From assembly GCA_964387965.1 (NCBI GenBank), contig CAYLXO010000004.1, positions 1 through 44,364 of the forward strand: 44,364 nucleotides of DNA. Direction: 5' to 3'. The first letter of the stretch is position 1. Each line of letters starts with the position of its first letter. Source of the stretch: an uncultured Candidatus Saccharibacteria bacterium (GTDB lineage Bacteria > Patescibacteriota > Minisyncoccia > Phycocordibacterales > UBA9973). Position numbers and translations under genes: made by a program. This document shows, in pieces, positions 27,091-33,390 of the stretch. The notes beneath the pieces are model-generated. The model searched no databases. It saw only the letters and a list, made by a program, of their open reading frames with translations, and was not told the origin of the DNA.

Positions 27091-27716
27091 GCACTCATTG
27101 TACCAAAGAATCGGTATATTTCCGCCTCAAGTTCGGGCACTGTATCAACAACAGCAAACGGTTCAGCTTTTTCAAACTCTTCGCGGGTGTGAAGCCCCCA
27201 GGTGACACCTATAGAACGCACGCCACACTCATTCCCTTCTCTCATGTCGCCAAGTGTATCGGTAATGAATATTGTTTCGCTTGGCTGTAAACCATATTGT
27301 GTAAGTAATTGATTTATTTTTATTGTTTTTCTTGCATGAGTATCACTGCCGAGGATTTCCTCAAATCTATCTCGAATATTTTCTTCTTCGAGAGATTCAA
27401 TAATATGTCGCGAATGAGATGATGAAACTATAGCGAGCCTAAAATCTTTAGACAGATCAAGCACAAGCTTTCGTATGACATCGTGAGTAGTGAGTTTTTT
27501 GAGACCATCTTTGTACAACTCTTCCCAATCGGTACGAAGGACATATCCATCGTGTGTAACTGCATGATGTAGTCCATCGTAAAAATTCCCAGACGACATC
27601 TTTTTTAGATACTCGTCAGATAAATGCGGATTTGTGCTTCGCATAATACCAAGAACTAAATCCGTAGTATTAACGAGCACTCCATCAAAATCAAAAATTA
27701 CGAGTTTTTTAAACAT
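27087..27716 (-). CDS. HAD-superfamily phosphatase (phosphoglycolate phosphatase/PGMB-like subfamily)
   Basis: Motif I is VIFDFDGVLVNT, motif II is AIVSSS, and motif IV is FITDTLGDM. Its start overlaps the ileS stop by 1 nt. Confidence 0.85.
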   Translation of the reverse strand: MFKKLVIFDFDGVLVNTTDLVLGIMRSTNPHLSDEYLKKMSSGNFYDGLHHAVTHDGYVLRTDWEELYKDGLKKLTTHDVIRKLVLDLSKDFRLAIVSSSHSRHIIESLEEENIRDRFEEILGSDTHARKTIKINQLLTQYGLQPSETIFITDTLGDMREGNECGVRSIGVTWGLHTREEFEKAEPFAVVDTVPELEAEIYRFFGTMSA

Positions 27717-30700
27717 TATTTTGTGATTACAATTGTATCACCCTTATACACAATCTCTTTTGCAAGTACCGTCTTTTTGAGGTCAGCTTCGTTATCTGCC
27801 ACCAATGCTTTTACACGTTCAGGGAGTGTAAGAGATATGACATCACTCGGAGTAAGATTTTCTTTCTTGCGTGTATCTTGAATTTCTCGCACAAGTTCGC
27901 GGTAATCCCCTTCTTTTTTAAGCTCAGGTGTGATTTCAGTAGCAAGCACAAAATCTGTACTGAGTGCCGTATCAGCAACAAGCTCTTTAATGTTTAATTC
28001 ATCTTTTATAATTTCAGTATACGCAAGACTTAAGTCGTACGCTTTCACTCGTAATTCTTTAAGTGGCTGTCGAACAGCAATGTTAGCTTTTTGTCGTGCT
28101 TGCAATCCAAGAGTGACAATCGTACGCGCAGTGCGAGTATTTTCCAATACAAGTGCGTTCACTTCTCCTGCCTCAGGCCAATTTGCAAGGTGTACACTCT
28201 CGCTGTCGTTTTCGTGGCGCAATTTTTGCCATATTTCTTCCGCGATAAATGGTGCAAACGGTGCGATGATAAGCGCGGTTGTTTTTAGTACAAAGTAGAG
28301 TGTACCTTTTGCTTCATTATCACCGTCTTTGATTCGGTCTCGTGATCTGCGTACGTACCATGTCGAAAGGTCATCAACAAAGAGATCAAATGGACGTGTC
28401 GCTTCTGTCATATCGTATGCATCCATTCCCTTTGTAACATCGCGGATAGTTTCGTATAAGCGCGCGATGATCCATTCATCGAGTACATTACCACTACGAA
28501 GTTCATATTTTGTAGTCTCTGCATCCATATCACGATACAACTCGTAAAACGCTGTAACGTTAGACAATCGTCCGACAATTTTCGAAGCGATTTCTGCAAC
28601 TGTGCGCTCAGAGAAATTTGCATCTTCTCCTTTCATGAGCGGACTTGCCATAAGATACAATCGGAGTGGATCAACGCCGTATTTATCAAAAAGAATCCAT
28701 GGATCTGGAAAATTATTTTTTGATTTCGACATTTTTTGTCCGTCTTCTGCAAGTAGTGTTCCTGTTGTCACCACATTTTTAAACGGCGCGCCTCCAAAGA
28801 GCACTGTTGATACAGCATGAGTATAGTAGAACCAGGTGCGAGTCTGAGCGATATATTCGGCGACAAAGCCAGCTGGGAAATTGTTGCACTGCCAGTCTTT
28901 ACCGTCACAAATCTCTCCCGGAGCATATGCAAATGGATAATGATCTTGCGCAAACGGCATCGAGCCTGATTCAAACCAGCAGTCAATAACCTCGGGAATA
29001 CGCTGGTATTCTTCACCTTGCTCATCTACGAGCACAATCTCATCAATGTACGGACGGTGTAGATCTATTTCATAGTGAGCATTATGTGGAAATGGGACAA
29101 ATGGAAGTGGGCGAATTTCTGCATTTACAAAGTCAGAGTATTCATCGTTAATTTCAGAAAGATTTTCATATCGCAATCCGTTTGTTACAAAGTTTACAGC
29201 GCGAGCCACACCCATATGTGCCACGATAAGCACTTTCTTCCCTAAGTATTTTGACTCGATATCAAATAAGAATTCTCCAACGCGTTTTACTAGTTGTGAA
29301 AAATTTTCTCCATCTTTAAATTCATGAAACGGATCTGTCGCATATTTCAAATCGTAGTAATGACGGAATTCATCTTTTGTAACTCCATCAAAGCTTGAAT
29401 CAATCTCCCATTCACGAATTCGATCATCGTAGACAACATTGTCTATTGGAAACCCGATTGTGTCACAAACTATTTGTGTTGTTTCTTTTACACGAAGTAT
29501 TGGCGATGCGATAACTACATCAACTTTTTCTGTAAAGCGCTGTGCACTTTCAAGCACTTGCGCTTTACCTTGTTCTGTAAGATGTGCACTATGATGCAAT
29601 TCCTGATTGTGCGTCGAGCCCAAATTATTTTCTGCTTGCCCGTGGCGCATAATAAAGTACGTATTGCCTGACTTTTTTGTCTTTGCTTTCAAATCTGCAA
29701 CCGATTGCACAAAAAGATACTTACCATTTTTTGATTTCCAAAACGGAAGTGGGCTTGCCCAATAACGATTGCGTGAAATATTCCAGTCAGGAGCATTCTC
29801 GACTGTGTGTTCGAATCTTCCTTCCTTAAGGTGCGCCGGAATCCAATTCATTGCCTGAGCTTTATCAAGCAATTCTTTTTTTACTTTTTGAATATTGATA
29901 AACCAACTTGGGAGCGCATAGTAAAAGAGTGGCGTCTCGCAACGATAACAGTGTGGGTATGAGTGAGTAATCTTTTCTTTTTTAAAGAGTGCTCCACTTG
30001 CCTGCAAGTACTTCAAGATTTCAATATCTGCCTTCATGTGGCCGTCTTTTTCAGTAGACTTTGGCTTGATAAGCATACCTGCAAAATCTGTAACCTCAGG
30101 TGCAAACTTTCCTTCTGGAGTGACGTGCACAATAAATGGGATATTTTCTTTTTGAGCAAGTACCGCGTCATCTTCACCGAACGCAGGTGCTTCATGAGCA
30201 ATACCAGTACCATCAGTAGTCGTCACAAAATCTCCATGAACAACTGTCCATGATTTTGGGTTTCTAAGCAACGCCTCCCCTTTTGTGTAGTACGGAAACG
30301 GAGGTGTATATTTTTTGCCAAGCAATTTTTCTCCTTTAAATTCTTCGACGATTTCGTACTGCTTGTCTTTAAAAACAGCTTCTGCTCTTTCTTTGGCTAC
30401 GACATAGAACTTGTCCTCGATTTTTGCTTTTACATATGTCGCCTCTTTATGAACAGCAAGTACAATATCCCCTGGAAGCGACCATGGGGTTGTCGTCCAC
30501 GCGATAAGAACAGTATTAGGATCTTCAACGAGTGGCATATTCACGTACACAGAAATATCCGAAATATCCTTGTACGAATTATCCATCGCGATTTCAGATT
30601 TTGCGATTGGTGTCTCACAACGAGGACAGTATGCAAGCACACGGACTCCTTCATACAAAAGCCCTTTGTCATTCATTTGGTTGAGAGCCCACCACACACT

Positions 30701-31162
30701 CTCGATAAATGTGTTGTCCATTGTTTTGTATGAGCCGTCAAAATCTACCCAGCGTCCGATACGTTCCACTGTCTTTTTCCAATCATGCACATATGTAAGC
30801 ACTTTACTTCGCGCATATTCGACAAACTTATCCACGCCAAGCGCTTCAATTTCGTTGTGACCAGAAACTTTCAAATCTTTTTCAACGATATTTTCAATCG
30901 GTAAGCCGTGACAATCCCACCCCCATCGTCGAGGAACGCTATATCCTTGCATCGTTTGGTAACGACCAATAACATCCTTTGCCGTTGAACCAAGAATGTG
31001 CCCGTAGTGTGGAAGCCCTGTTGCAAACGGTGGTCCATCATAAAAAACATAGTTCCCTTTTGGAGATTCTTTTCGAAGTGATTTATGGAACGTGTCATTT
31101 TCCTTCCAAAATTGGAGGATTTTCTCTTCTCGTTCTGCGTGTTGTGATTTTTTGTTTTCCAT
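27716..31162 (-). CDS. ileS: Isoleucyl-tRNA synthetase (eukaryote-like type 2) carrying an internal ~200-aa histidine-phosphatase-family insertion
   Basis: Seen are HIGH = PHYGHILG, the editing-domain block TTTPWSLPG, DWNISRNRYW, VIDCWFESGSMPF and KMSKSKNNF. The insertion spans residues ~499-698 and contains RHG (see findings). Confidence 0.93.
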   Translation of the reverse strand: MENKKSQHAEREEKILQFWKENDTFHKSLRKESPKGNYVFYDGPPFATGLPHYGHILGSTAKDVIGRYQTMQGYSVPRRWGWDCHGLPIENIVEKDLKVSGHNEIEALGVDKFVEYARSKVLTYVHDWKKTVERIGRWVDFDGSYKTMDNTFIESVWWALNQMNDKGLLYEGVRVLAYCPRCETPIAKSEIAMDNSYKDISDISVYVNMPLVEDPNTVLIAWTTTPWSLPGDIVLAVHKEATYVKAKIEDKFYVVAKERAEAVFKDKQYEIVEEFKGEKLLGKKYTPPFPYYTKGEALLRNPKSWTVVHGDFVTTTDGTGIAHEAPAFGEDDAVLAQKENIPFIVHVTPEGKFAPEVTDFAGMLIKPKSTEKDGHMKADIEILKYLQASGALFKKEKITHSYPHCYRCETPLFYYALPSWFINIQKVKKELLDKAQAMNWIPAHLKEGRFEHTVENAPDWNISRNRYWASPLPFWKSKNGKYLFVQSVADLKAKTKKSGNTYFIMRHGQAENNLGSTHNQELHHSAHLTEQGKAQVLESAQRFTEKVDVVIASPILRVKETTQIVCDTIGFPIDNVVYDDRIREWEIDSSFDGVTKDEFRHYYDLKYATDPFHEFKDGENFSQLVKRVGEFLFDIESKYLGKKVLIVAHMGVARAVNFVTNGLRYENLSEINDEYSDFVNAEIRPLPFVPFPHNAHYEIDLHRPYIDEIVLVDEQGEEYQRIPEVIDCWFESGSMPFAQDHYPFAYAPGEICDGKDWQCNNFPAGFVAEYIAQTRTWFYYTHAVSTVLFGGAPFKNVVTTGTLLAEDGQKMSKSKNNFPDPWILFDKYGVDPLRLYLMASPLMKGEDANFSERTVAEIASKIVGRLSNVTAFYELYRDMDAETTKYELRSGNVLDEWIIARLYETIRDVTKGMDAYDMTEATRPFDLFVDDLSTWYVRRSRDRIKDGDNEAKGTLYFVLKTTALIIAPFAPFIAEEIWQKLRHENDSESVHLANWPEAGEVNALVLENTRTARTIVTLGLQARQKANIAVRQPLKELRVKAYDLSLAYTEIIKDELNIKELVADTALSTDFVLATEITPELKKEGDYRELVREIQDTRKKENLTPSDVISLTLPERVKALVADNEADLKKTVLAKEIVYKGDTIVITK

Positions 31163-31166
31163 ACTG

Positions 31167-31427
31167 TTATGTAATAAATGCTGTTAGTACTGTGATAATT
31201 CCGAGGAGCACACCAGGGACATTTGCCCAAAATACAAACTTTTCCTTTTTCATATACCCATAGATAGACCAGATAATGCAGTTGAGTGTCGTGACGGCGG
31301 GCATAATATAAATATGGCTTTCTCCAGCAAGATTGTCTTTTGCTATTTCTATGAGTGACACAAACATTAGTATGGCAAGAGTTGCCCCAGCTGTGCCAAA
31401 CATATTTATAATTTTTTCTTTGGTCAT
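31167..31427 (-). CDS. SemiSWEET-like (MtN3/PQ-loop family) 3-TM membrane transporter, 86 aa
   Basis: The protein is MTKEKIINMFGTAGATLAILMFVSLIEIAKDNLAGESHIYIMPAVTTLNCIIWSIYGYMKKEKFVFWANVPGVLLGIITVLTAFIT. It has three helices, and the W..YG and AN spacing matches bacterial SemiSWEETs. The ORF track's TTG start at 31457 lies inside the T-box terminator and is rejected. The stop is 4 nt before the ileS ATG. Confidence 0.6.
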   Translation of the reverse strand: MTKEKIINMFGTAGATLAILMFVSLIEIAKDNLAGESHIYIMPAVTTLNCIIWSIYGYMKKEKFVFWANVPGVLLGIITVLTAFIT

Positions 31428-31433
31428 ATAAGT

Positions 31434-31480
31434 AAAAAACTCGTCCTTAAAAAACAATACAATTGTTTTTTAAGGACGAG
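31434..31480 (-). terminator. T-box expression-platform terminator
   Basis: It reads CUCGUCCUUAAAAAACAAU-ugu-AUUGUUUUUUAAGGACGAG followed by UUUUUU. The 5' arm shares CUCGUCCUU with the antiterminator. Confidence 0.9.
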
Positions 31481-31640
31481 TTTCCTCGTGGTACCACCTT
31501 AATTCCCCCTTTCGGGCTTCTTCTCTGCTGTAACGGGCTCTCCCGCTTGGGTCTACTTGCTCATGTATCAGATGAACGTTCTTCCAAGAGCTTATCTGCC
31601 TTCGGCAAACTTGAGGGTTGATATCCCCTAAAACTTGTAC
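31434..31640 (-). promoter_or_regulatory. T-box riboswitch leader (Ile specifier AUC candidate)
   Basis: The minus RNA contains the T-box sequence AAUUAAGGUGGUACCACGAGG. The canonical antiterminator is AAGG-[UGGUACC bulge, 31490-31496]-ACGAG-GAAA-CUCGU-CCUU. Also present are the F-box CCGUUA (31531-36), Stem III CCC-GAAA-GGG (31507-16), and a mutually exclusive 19-bp terminator. AUC-A lies in a hairpin loop at 31619-31622. Confidence 0.88.
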
Positions 31641-31683
31641 TCATACAGTAGCACAAGATACACACATTTCAAACAAACGCGTA

Positions 31684-33390
31684 TTACATCCTCTCTGGCA
31701 CATTAATACCAAGGAGGTAAAGTCCGTTCTCCATTGTTTTTCGAAATGCGCCTGTAAGTGCCACTTTGTATGGTGAAGAAGCGTCTTCAGGATTTACAAT
31801 CTGTTCTTGCCCGTAGAAAGAATTAAACGTTGAAGCAAGTTCGGTCATATACCCTGCAATATGATGTGGCTCTCGAAGTGAAAATGCTCGTTCTACAACT
31901 TCAGGGAAACGGTAAAGCATTTTTTCAAGATTGGTTGTACTCCAATTTTCTGGAATTGATGTGTTGCCTACGACTCCCTGTGCTTTTGCTTTTTCTAATA
32001 TTGAACCAGCACGCACGGTTGTGTACTGAAGATATGGCCCAGAGTCACCATCAAATGACACAGATTTTTCCTCGTCGTAAATAATATTACCGCCAAGAGC
32101 TTGTTTTAAAATTACGTACTTAATAGCAGAAACAGCTACCTGTTCAGCAAGTTTTTCTTTTTCTGAATTCTCGAATTCTCGGTCTTTAATTTTCTCAAAA
32201 ACAAGTTCTTTCGTGTCACTCAGAAGTGACTCACCTGTTATCACATTTCCTTTTCGAGAGCTCATTTTTCCATGAGCAAAACGCATCATCCCGTGTGTAA
32301 GATGCTTCATGCGACTTTCGTAGTCAGGATGCATGATTGAAAGCGCTTTTTGCACTACTTCCATATATGGACCCTGTTCGATTGCAGTAACAACAATAGA
32401 TAAATCGGGATTTACTTCAGTAAATTTTGTGACAGTAAGACCGATTTCTTTTGCTTCGTACGTTGGCAACCCTTGTTTTGTGATAAACACACGAGTGTGA
32501 AGTTTTGGATCATGCTCTTCAGCATGAAATACAATTGCTCCGTCTGACTCAGCAAATACTTTTCCTATATTCTCACGCACAATACCGGCACCAAGCGGTG
32601 CCATTGTGCTTTCAAAAAAGTAATTATTGAATTTTGTGCCGAGTGTTTTGTAGATTGTTTCAAAAGCTTGAAGAGTCACTTCTCTTCCCCAGTCATACAT
32701 TTCATTTATCGCTGAGTCGCTTTTTTCGTACACTTTTTTGTTTATTGCATCAATCTCGGCTTTTACATCTGCACTTTCTTCATACAAATTTGAAGCCTCG
32801 CTGTAACAAGCACCAATATATTCTGCCTGTTTTTCAACGGTGAGTGTAGTATCGCCCTTACCTTTTTTCATAAGCATCCATAGTGCCTTTGCAACATGAA
32901 GCCCTACATCTCCTTGATAGTTGGCACGGACTACGTTTGCACCAGAATATTCAAAAATACGAGCCGTTGATTCTCCAATAGCATTGGTCATTAGGTGCCC
33001 GATATGAAATGGCTTAAATGGATTTGGGTCGGTGTACTCAACCATTACCTTTTTCCCCGCTGATGCGCTGTTGCTTCCCCAGTTTTTAGTGTCTGCAATT
33101 TCTTTAAGTGACTGTGCAAAAAATTCTTTTGAAAGATGGAAGTTTATAAACCCAGGACCTGCAATTTCTATTTTTTCAATTTCTTTAATTTTATTTTCAG
33201 AAAGTTTTGTAACGATTTCTTCTGCTAGAGTGCGCGGATTTTTACCTAGTGCCTTTGCATGTGCCATAGCAACATTTGTCGAATAATCTCCGTGTGATAG
33301 ATCTGCTGGGTGCTCAAGCAAAACATTCGGAGCATCGACTCCGAGTTCTTTCAAAGCATTTTGTATTTGTATTTTTATTTGTTCCTGCAT
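31684..33390 (-). CDS. argS: Arginyl-tRNA synthetase
   Basis: It contains PNPFKPFHIGHL (HIGH), GKMSSRKGNVI, and a C-terminal DALR-type anticodon-binding domain ending in M. Confidence 0.95.
   Translation of the reverse strand: MQEQIKIQIQNALKELGVDAPNVLLEHPADLSHGDYSTNVAMAHAKALGKNPRTLAEEIVTKLSENKIKEIEKIEIAGPGFINFHLSKEFFAQSLKEIADTKNWGSNSASAGKKVMVEYTDPNPFKPFHIGHLMTNAIGESTARIFEYSGANVVRANYQGDVGLHVAKALWMLMKKGKGDTTLTVEKQAEYIGACYSEASNLYEESADVKAEIDAINKKVYEKSDSAINEMYDWGREVTLQAFETIYKTLGTKFNNYFFESTMAPLGAGIVRENIGKVFAESDGAIVFHAEEHDPKLHTRVFITKQGLPTYEAKEIGLTVTKFTEVNPDLSIVVTAIEQGPYMEVVQKALSIMHPDYESRMKHLTHGMMRFAHGKMSSRKGNVITGESLLSDTKELVFEKIKDREFENSEKEKLAEQVAVSAIKYVILKQALGGNIIYDEEKSVSFDGDSGPYLQYTTVRAGSILEKAKAQGVVGNTSIPENWSTTNLEKMLYRFPEVVERAFSLREPHHIAGYMTELASTFNSFYGQEQIVNPEDASSPYKVALTGAFRKTMENGLYLLGINVPERM

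Follow-up and report, generated by a model that had tools for sequence, protein, structure and literature searches.

Which substrate passes through a SemiSWEET-family protein whose gene is placed behind a sensor of isoleucine starvation? The question is raised by a 44,364-nucleotide stretch of DNA from an uncultured Candidatus Saccharibacteria bacterium (contig CAYLXO010000004.1 of assembly GCA_964387965.1; hereafter the window), in which a gene for a protein of 86 amino acids (aa) lies between a T-box leader and ileS, the gene for isoleucyl-tRNA synthetase (IleRS). T-box regulons comprise genes for aminoacyl-tRNA synthetases, for biosynthesis and for cognate transporters, and an earlier note on the window had proposed that the small protein takes up isoleucine or another branched-chain amino acid. 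We found that uncharged tRNA-Ile very probably governs both the SemiSWEET gene and ileS by antitermination, as far as this can be read from sequence. Uptake of isoleucine or branched-chain amino acids by the SemiSWEET is a possible role that we put forward tentatively, and it is nearly as likely that the gene is an incidental passenger of the operon.

The locus touches on the wider question of amino-acid uptake by ultra-small bacteria of the Candidate Phyla Radiation (CPR), which are unable to make amino acids. A carrier-family gene wired to an isoleucine-starvation sensor supplies a specific and cheaply testable substrate hypothesis, and a literature search returned no paper linking a SemiSWEET with a T-box, a riboswitch or Patescibacteria, nor a T-box with CPR bacteria.

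The leader in front of the SemiSWEET gene

The leader lies on the minus strand between argS and the SemiSWEET gene (argS stop at 31686..31684, followed by a 256-nt spacer; Table 1). Direct reading revealed a specifier codon, a UGGN bulge, and an antiterminator whose 3' arm overlaps the 5' arm of the terminator, so that the two folds are mutually exclusive. The terminator folds at -26.7 kcal/mol (z = -10.7), and none of 200 shuffled sequences folded as well. In 22 leaders, namely that of the window, 15 related ones and those of L018 and five other loci, the loop of the Stem I hairpin contains the specifier AUC followed by A or G, and the hairpin (4-7 bp) covaries across the leaders read; an automated Stem I script had picked wrong hairpins in several loci, and the leaders were read directly instead. 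AUC was found in 13/13 loci bearing the SemiSWEET gene and is kept also in related ileS leaders without it. The tRNA-Ile(GAU) of the genome that carries the window (G000, 0.70 Mb, 92% complete; tRNA gene on contig C5) has discriminator A73, matching the UGGU bulge, which pairs with the A73-CCA end. These results bear out the isoleucine specificity that the earlier note had assigned to the T-box.

At the Rfam gathering threshold, no T-box was reported in the window; the permissive match to RF00230 reached 39.6 bits against a gathering cut-off of 93 bits. This deficit is explained by the lack of a long Stem I, for which 91 model positions are deleted, and homologous leaders were matched by Rfam at 16 related loci with 26-54 bits. 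Judged by its sequence, the leader is a true Ile T-box, ultrashort in its Stem I, and acts by transcription termination. It is very improbable that the leader no longer works as a T-box or does not control the SemiSWEET gene, the Rfam match being a relic and the hairpin an argS terminator. The low Rfam score would suit such a relic, and a hairpin 200 nt past the argS stop could end the argS transcript, but more than 20 leaders keep the specifier loop, the F-box, the UGGU T-box sequence and the exclusive folds, with covariation, the specifier and discriminator fit the genome's own tRNA-Ile, and the leader stays with ileS while the genes of the argS-leader interval differ.

In the proposed mechanism, the T-box attenuator would gate an mRNA whose first cistron encodes the SemiSWEET-family three-helix carrier and whose second is ileS. 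The anticodon of uncharged tRNA-Ile(GAU) would pair with AUC in the ultrashort Stem I loop and its free A73-CCA end with UGGU in the antiterminator bulge; the 21-bp terminator would thereby be blocked, and RNA polymerase would read into the SemiSWEET gene and ileS. Actinobacterial ileS T-boxes (Mycobacterium, Nocardia) also have an ultrashort Stem I with AUC in its terminal loop; a Stem II/F-box region and a UGGU bulge are further shared features, and the target gene is ileS in both. In contrast, actinobacterial control is translational, by sequestration of the ribosome-binding site, whereas the present leader has a 21-bp terminator with a U6 run and would act on transcription; a further difference is the transporter-family gene inserted here before ileS.

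Transcription probably begins near A31638 ('ACAAG'), downstream of a promoter-like site that the strict consensus promoter scan did not report (TTGAAA/TACTGT). An extended -10 element of the form TGnTAnnnT precedes the leader start 'ACAAGCG' by about 7 nt in the window and in L008, L011, L020, L025 and L029, which suggests that the T-box transcript starts just ahead of Stem I. In the same genome, another T-box that scores below the threshold (32.1 bits) was detected before aspS (contig C21:5689-5870, plus strand, equivalent to L002:1501-1682, with aspS at L002:1742-3130). Its hairpin CCG-CUGACAA-CGG carries a GAC (Asp) specifier and its bulge reads UGGC, as tRNA-Asp would require; it seems to resemble the ileS element in combining an ultrashort Stem I with a terminator. 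This second element indicates that the T-box system is in use in the genome.

Downstream of the terminator, the U6 run (31439..31434) is followed by ACUUAU (6 nt) and the SemiSWEET ATG at 31427, and the TAA stop (31169..31167) by CAGT (4 nt) and the ileS ATG at 31162; direct sequence reading thus agreed with the coordinates and spacings given earlier (ATG 6 nt past the U-run, stop 4 nt before the ileS ATG). A minus-strand scan returned no consensus promoter from the terminator to ileS, and the 6-nt gap before the SemiSWEET ATG leaves no room for one. The gap between the SemiSWEET gene and ileS measures 2-9 nt in all loci with the T-box/SemiSWEET/ileS order, a spacing from which translational coupling of the two genes may be supposed.

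Table 1. Features of the T-box/SemiSWEET/ileS locus, in coordinates of the window
Feature	Position	Strand	Evidence
Promoter-like site: TTGAAA (31672..31667), 16-nt spacer, TGc-TACTGT extended -10 (31650..31645)	31645..31672	-	Sequence reading; putative
Ultrashort Stem I hairpin GGGG-AUAUCAA-CCCU; specifier AUC 31622..31620, then A	31614..31628	-	Comparative reading
T-box leader core, Rfam RF00230 match	31469..31605	-	Permissive Rfam search, 39.6 bits, E 3e-7
F-box CCGUUA	31536..31531	-	Inside T-box core
Antiterminator AAGG[UGGUACC]ACGAG-GAAA-CUCGUCCUU	31500..31472	-	Fold -7.4 kcal/mol
Intrinsic terminator: 21-bp stem 31482..31438, then U6 31439..31434	31434..31482	-	Fold and terminator scan
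SemiSWEET-family gene, 86 aa, three transmembrane helices	31167..31427	-	Pfam, AF2, Foldseek, orthologues
ileS, 1148-aa IleRS with inserted His_Phos_1 domain, second cistron	27716..31162	-	Open reading frame list; Pfam domains of orthologues

The 86-aa protein and its family

We then compared the 86-aa protein with profile and structure collections. Pfam MtN3_slv (PF03083) matched residues 9-81 with 33.2 bits (E 5.3e-8; curated cut-off, 23.7 bits), and PF03083 is annotated in 13/13 orthologues in a precomputed table. At E <= 10, Pfam listed besides it only weak matches to Phage_holin_Dp1 and Rhomboid; PF04193 (PQ-loop) was not among them, so that the profile homology to SemiSWEET or PQ-loop proteins expected by the earlier note was found in MtN3_slv. 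The NCBIfam SemiSWEET models gave no match at E <= 0.01. An AlphaFold2 (AF2) model made from the 13 orthologues (predicted local distance difference test, 87) has helices at residues 3-33, 41-59 and 63-82. With the Foldseek matches, it describes the single triple-helix bundle of about 80-100 aa typical of the family. All of the top 17 Foldseek matches in the PDB were SemiSWEET or SWEET chains (4QNC, 4X5M, 4X5N, 4QND, 4RNG, 5UHS, 5CTG/H), and the 16 that superposed well had template-modelling scores of 0.56-0.69. The proposed SemiSWEET-type three-helix protein is therefore supported by both profile and fold.

The 13 orthologues are 61-81% identical to the 86-aa protein and share 32 invariant residues. 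Residues 1-8 are kept among them, with Lys3 invariant, and the ATG at 31427 is for this reason preferred over an internal ATG at 31403. Ratios of nonsynonymous to synonymous substitution (dN/dS) of 0.06-0.21, where dS was unsaturated, indicate that the gene is under strong purifying selection.

The earlier note had read Ser-Leu as the replacement of the family's Pro-Gln (PQ) motif. Pro-Gln is indeed missing, but the equivalent position is Glu27-Ile28 and not Ser24-Leu25. We aligned the profile of the 13 orthologues to the nearest PQ-bearing relatives ('...MYVSYIPQI..NLAG..G..IQP...INC..W..Y...AN.PG...'), and hhalign joined the two with a probability of 99.7% (E 8e-27); the alignment is gapless through transmembrane helices (TM) 1 and 2 and sets Pro-Gln opposite Glu27-Ile28. 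A HMMER register against plant SWEET13 was judged less reliable, as it inserted a 3-residue gap that shifted the register. The PQ signature is replaced by Glu-Ile/Val in what we call the Glu-type proteins, and Glu at the proline position is invariant across this wider subfamily; in the broader clade the proline position varies (P, A, D, Q or E) while the remaining motif is kept.

The other family-specific positions are conserved. Trp53 in TM2 and Asn69 in TM3, 16 residues apart, are invariant in 23/23 aligned sequences and correspond in the alignment to the conserved Trp of TM6 and Asn of TM7 in AtSWEET13 (5XPD); Asn49, Met21 and the Asn32/Gly35 loop are further invariant carrier-specific positions. 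The protein thus keeps the SWEET pocket, with the hinge proline exchanged for a carboxylate. By profile, fold and pocket it is a member of the SemiSWEET/MtN3 family, and it belongs to a variant subfamily, because the PQ signature motif of the family is missing. The solved SemiSWEETs (Leptospira biflexa 4QNC, E. coli 4X5M/4X5N, Vibrio 4QND, Thermodesulfovibrio 4RNG) and BjSemiSWEET1 are likewise MtN3_slv proteins of about 85 aa that form a three-helix bundle, with a TM2 Trp and TM3 Asn at the pocket positions and an N..G motif in the TM1-TM2 loop. In contrast, the 86-aa protein is only 17-21% identical to them and has Glu-Ile/Val for Pro-Gln.

Given the absent PQ motif, the unmatched NCBIfam models, and the gap of 2-9 nt to ileS without an obvious Shine-Dalgarno sequence in any of the loci, we considered a small membrane protein that is not a carrier and might, for example, tether the ileS mRNA to the membrane through co-translational insertion or set ileS translation through termination-reinitiation. 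This seems improbable. The invariant residues fall on the carrier-specific positions named above, the variable proline position in the wider clade indicates that the proline is not essential there, and 61-81% identity with dN/dS near 0.1 goes far beyond what a coupling open reading frame (ORF) would need.

A second, very divergent MtN3_slv protein of 97 aa (31.2 bits) is encoded in the same genome beside atpD/atpC (contig C5:17065-17355, minus strand, equivalent to L004:1486-1779). It has no PQ motif, the Trp/Asn pair is apparently missing too (FFYG... and IPEGIG stand there), and weak homologues were found only in G001 and G011.

Gene order and distribution among relatives

To place the arrangement in a comparative frame, we read the contigs of 14 proteins with 61-100% identity in a large protein collection together with the matches of a genome-collection scan, which gave 15 distinct orthologue loci after merging duplicates (L006 = L035, L008 = L039 = L009, L013 = L014). 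The order T-box, SemiSWEET, ileS occurs in 13 of them (the window, L006, L008, L010, L011, L012, L013, L015, L034, L036, L037, L038 and L040), with L016 and L043 as the exceptions; a transporter-family gene thus follows a T-box of the same specificity in different species, and the linkage expected by the earlier note is conserved. The arrangement spans IleRS N-terminal identities down to about 43%, and its flanks vary: the interval from argS to the leader holds Maf, small ORFs or opposite-strand genes, and the genes after ileS encode a cyclase, a metallo-beta-lactamase-fold protein, PNPOx, RecO or HAD.

The gene is missing from most of the relatives that retain the T-box-ileS pair. Absences were called in draft genomes 82-100% complete. 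G001, G011 and G002 have the same T-box 10-80 nt before ileS and no trace of the SemiSWEET gene, and in G003 a contig end cuts the leader about 70 nt before ileS. We built a tree from the first 460 IleRS residues, in which no frequencies can be read, as the positive loci were gathered by gene search. In both deep clades the loci with the SemiSWEET gene are paraphyletic and branch at the base, and those without it cluster in a few derived groups; the tree calls for at least 4 changes. This distribution fits an old T-box/SemiSWEET/ileS arrangement with repeated clean losses. Across the deep split, the SemiSWEET proteins are 62-69% identical, compared with 43-48% for the IleRS N-terminus.

More distant Glu-type homologues, at 40-47% identity, were found in DPANN archaea, in a Hyphomonadaceae bin (an alphaproteobacterium) and on other CPR contigs, beside genes for UMP-kinase-like, MFS, GNAT/NUDIX, GlyRS and exosome proteins. 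MtN3_slv genes are present in 66 of 401 sampled Patescibacteria genomes, and the best 30 of these loci have no T-box and no other riboswitch within 1.5 kb. As the distant Glu-type loci are free of riboswitches as well, the T-box link is specific to this orthologue group. A metagenome scan with alignment A1 returned 8 short contigs, on which neither ileS nor a T-box was found; the wider Glu-type alignments A3 and A4 were too degenerate for such a scan. One Glu-type homologue (47% identity) lies directly 3' of a glycyl-tRNA synthetase gene (L047:821-2560), with no T-box detected there. Adjacency to aminoacyl-tRNA synthetase genes elsewhere (GlyRS in L047, PheRS-alpha near L042/L049) was judged compatible with chance in tiny genomes.

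The IleRS of the window carries a His_Phos_1 insert, a phosphoglycerate-mutase-like phosphatase domain, around 29069-29668 (minus strand, within ileS). A link between this insert and the SemiSWEET gene was rejected, as the SemiSWEET-negative G001 and G011 carry the insert too.

Isoleucine or another substrate

Several hints favour an amino-acid substrate. First, BrnQ, APC and LivHM-type permeases were found in 0/16 genomes of the genus, and no BPD_transp_1 permease was found in G000. Second, G000, at its 92% completeness, yielded no ROK kinase, glucokinase or PGI, so that an imported hexose would have no obvious fate there; one PfkB-family sugar or nucleoside kinase and an enolase are present. 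Third, the invariant Glu in place of the PQ proline sets the Glu-type subfamily apart from the sugar SemiSWEETs studied so far. The physiological role of prokaryotic SemiSWEETs is not known, and only one of eight tested moved sucrose (PMC5972207).

The 86-aa protein would presumably be homodimeric, as SemiSWEETs usually are, and would act as a facilitator through which isoleucine or a closely related branched-chain compound may enter by facilitated diffusion; the co-expressed IleRS would consume the substrate and draw the flux inward. A uniporter cannot concentrate its substrate, and pairing with a consuming enzyme is the logic of the Pnu facilitators. A T-box-gated SemiSWEET that admits isoleucine, trapped by IleRS, is our best explanation of the whole locus, offered with less than even confidence. 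The most far-reaching reading, in which the Glu-type SemiSWEET facilitates the entry of isoleucine (branched-chain amino acids) with flux driven by co-expressed IleRS, is somewhat more doubtful.

Several known systems resemble parts of this scheme. Pnu vitamin facilitators, whose PnuC fold is SWEET-like, work with trapping kinases, as in PnuC-NadR, or in PnuT with thiamine pyrophosphokinase behind thiamine pyrophosphate (TPP) riboswitches. The proposed design would be the same by analogy, namely a small facilitator of the SWEET/PnuC superfamily directly behind a metabolite-sensing RNA and next to a consuming enzyme; Pnu proteins differ in having 7-8 TM, in belonging to another family, and in being paired with a kinase rather than an aminoacyl-tRNA synthetase. 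In Firmicutes, genes for branched-chain permeases of the brnQ/braB/bcaP type lie behind Ile/Leu/Val T-boxes. There too, a carrier gene is induced by the uncharged cognate tRNA through a T-box and an intrinsic terminator, but the permeases are 12-TM LIVCS or APC proteins with a T-box of their own, whereas the three-helix putative carrier described here shares the T-box of ileS. The MtN3-like Pfam clan of the 86-aa protein also includes the eukaryotic PQ-loop carriers (cystinosin, PQLC2/LAAT-1, yeast Ypq1-3), which demonstrate that amino-acid transport is possible for this fold (PMC5972207). They differ in having 7 TM and in moving cystine or cationic amino acids, while the 86-aa protein has the SWEET-type Trp/Asn pocket and is unmatched by PF04193.

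A number of findings weigh against isoleucine uptake and suit a different account that we consider a serious contender, if short of probable: a working SemiSWEET for a sugar or another non-isoleucine metabolite, with T-box control incidental or tolerated in a compact genome that crowds its genes into any transcription unit at hand. The Trp53/Asn69 pair of the SWEET sugar pocket is retained and invariant, the best PDB sequence matches are plant sugar SWEETs, and G000 has a PfkB-family kinase. Set against this, glucokinase, ROK kinase and PGI were looked for in G000 and not found, and the PQ proline is lost. In EcSemiSWEET a Pro-to-Ala exchange at this motif strongly lowers sugar transport (PMC5972207). 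Moreover, genes with a role in carbohydrate metabolism were seen beside the gene in none of the loci read. By comparison, a published survey of SemiSWEET gene contexts reported carbohydrate, nucleotide and inositol neighbours, and the carbohydrate genes around the known SemiSWEETs differ from the position here between a T-box and an aminoacyl-tRNA synthetase gene (PMC5972207).

The distribution of the gene, which is that of an accessory gene, counts for a passenger and against isoleucine. Of 60 sampled relatives, just two matched the 86-aa query, namely G008 with an orthologue and G017 with a distant PQ-type protein (30% identity). Four genomes of the same genus (G001, G011, G002 and G003) are without the SemiSWEET gene although their IleRS N-terminal 300 aa are 81-87% identical; these congeners should need isoleucine equally, and the clean losses from T-box-ileS leaders are readily accommodated if the gene is a passenger. 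Distant Glu-type loci show no ileS and no T-box nearby, in line with the riboswitch-free Patescibacteria loci.

Gene order can be read both ways. The orthologue of L016 lies outside T-box control, after ileS-HAD-HD-Ser_hydrolase-PaaX and before recO, behind an intrinsic terminator and its own extended -10 promoter (L016:3534-3900, TGTGATAAAAT); it is a natural example of a SemiSWEET gene working without T-box control. The orthologue of L043 also has no T-box, and an unrelated 210-aa ORF ends 80 nt upstream of it. The genes that follow ileS are unrelated and variable (HAD, cyclase, metallo-beta-lactamase fold, RecO), and operon membership is therefore a weak functional signal here. Furthermore, synteny in these loci extends over the entire dut-argS-ileS region, and the conserved adjacency may therefore reflect a low rate of rearrangement rather than selection. 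A mere passenger is less easily reconciled with the exact insertion point between terminator and ileS, which persists over deep divergence although the flanks on either side vary.

If isoleucine uptake is correct, the protein would be the first SemiSWEET to carry an amino acid, and its physiological role the first to be shown for any prokaryotic member of the family. For a CPR lineage without recognised amino-acid permeases, it would also be the first route of amino-acid entry to be identified. The substrate range of the SWEET fold would then reach amino acids, and T-box regulons would gain a design of import and trapping by the synthetase. If it is refuted, the locus would serve as a warning that operon membership poorly predicts function in highly compacted genomes.

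Among other genes of G000 that bear on branched-chain amino acids, an aminotransferase-like gene was considered as a partner co-occurring with the SemiSWEET gene and rejected, as it is present in 2/61 genomes and absent from the SemiSWEET-positive G008. It lies on a 7.8-kb contig for which mis-binning is possible (C28:2906-3910, minus strand, equivalent to L051:304-1311). The encoded 335-aa protein resembles a divergent class-II branched-chain aminotransferase (NCBIfam PRK13357, 198 bits vs a cut-off of 307) and keeps the pyridoxal phosphate-lysine context AKAAGNY.

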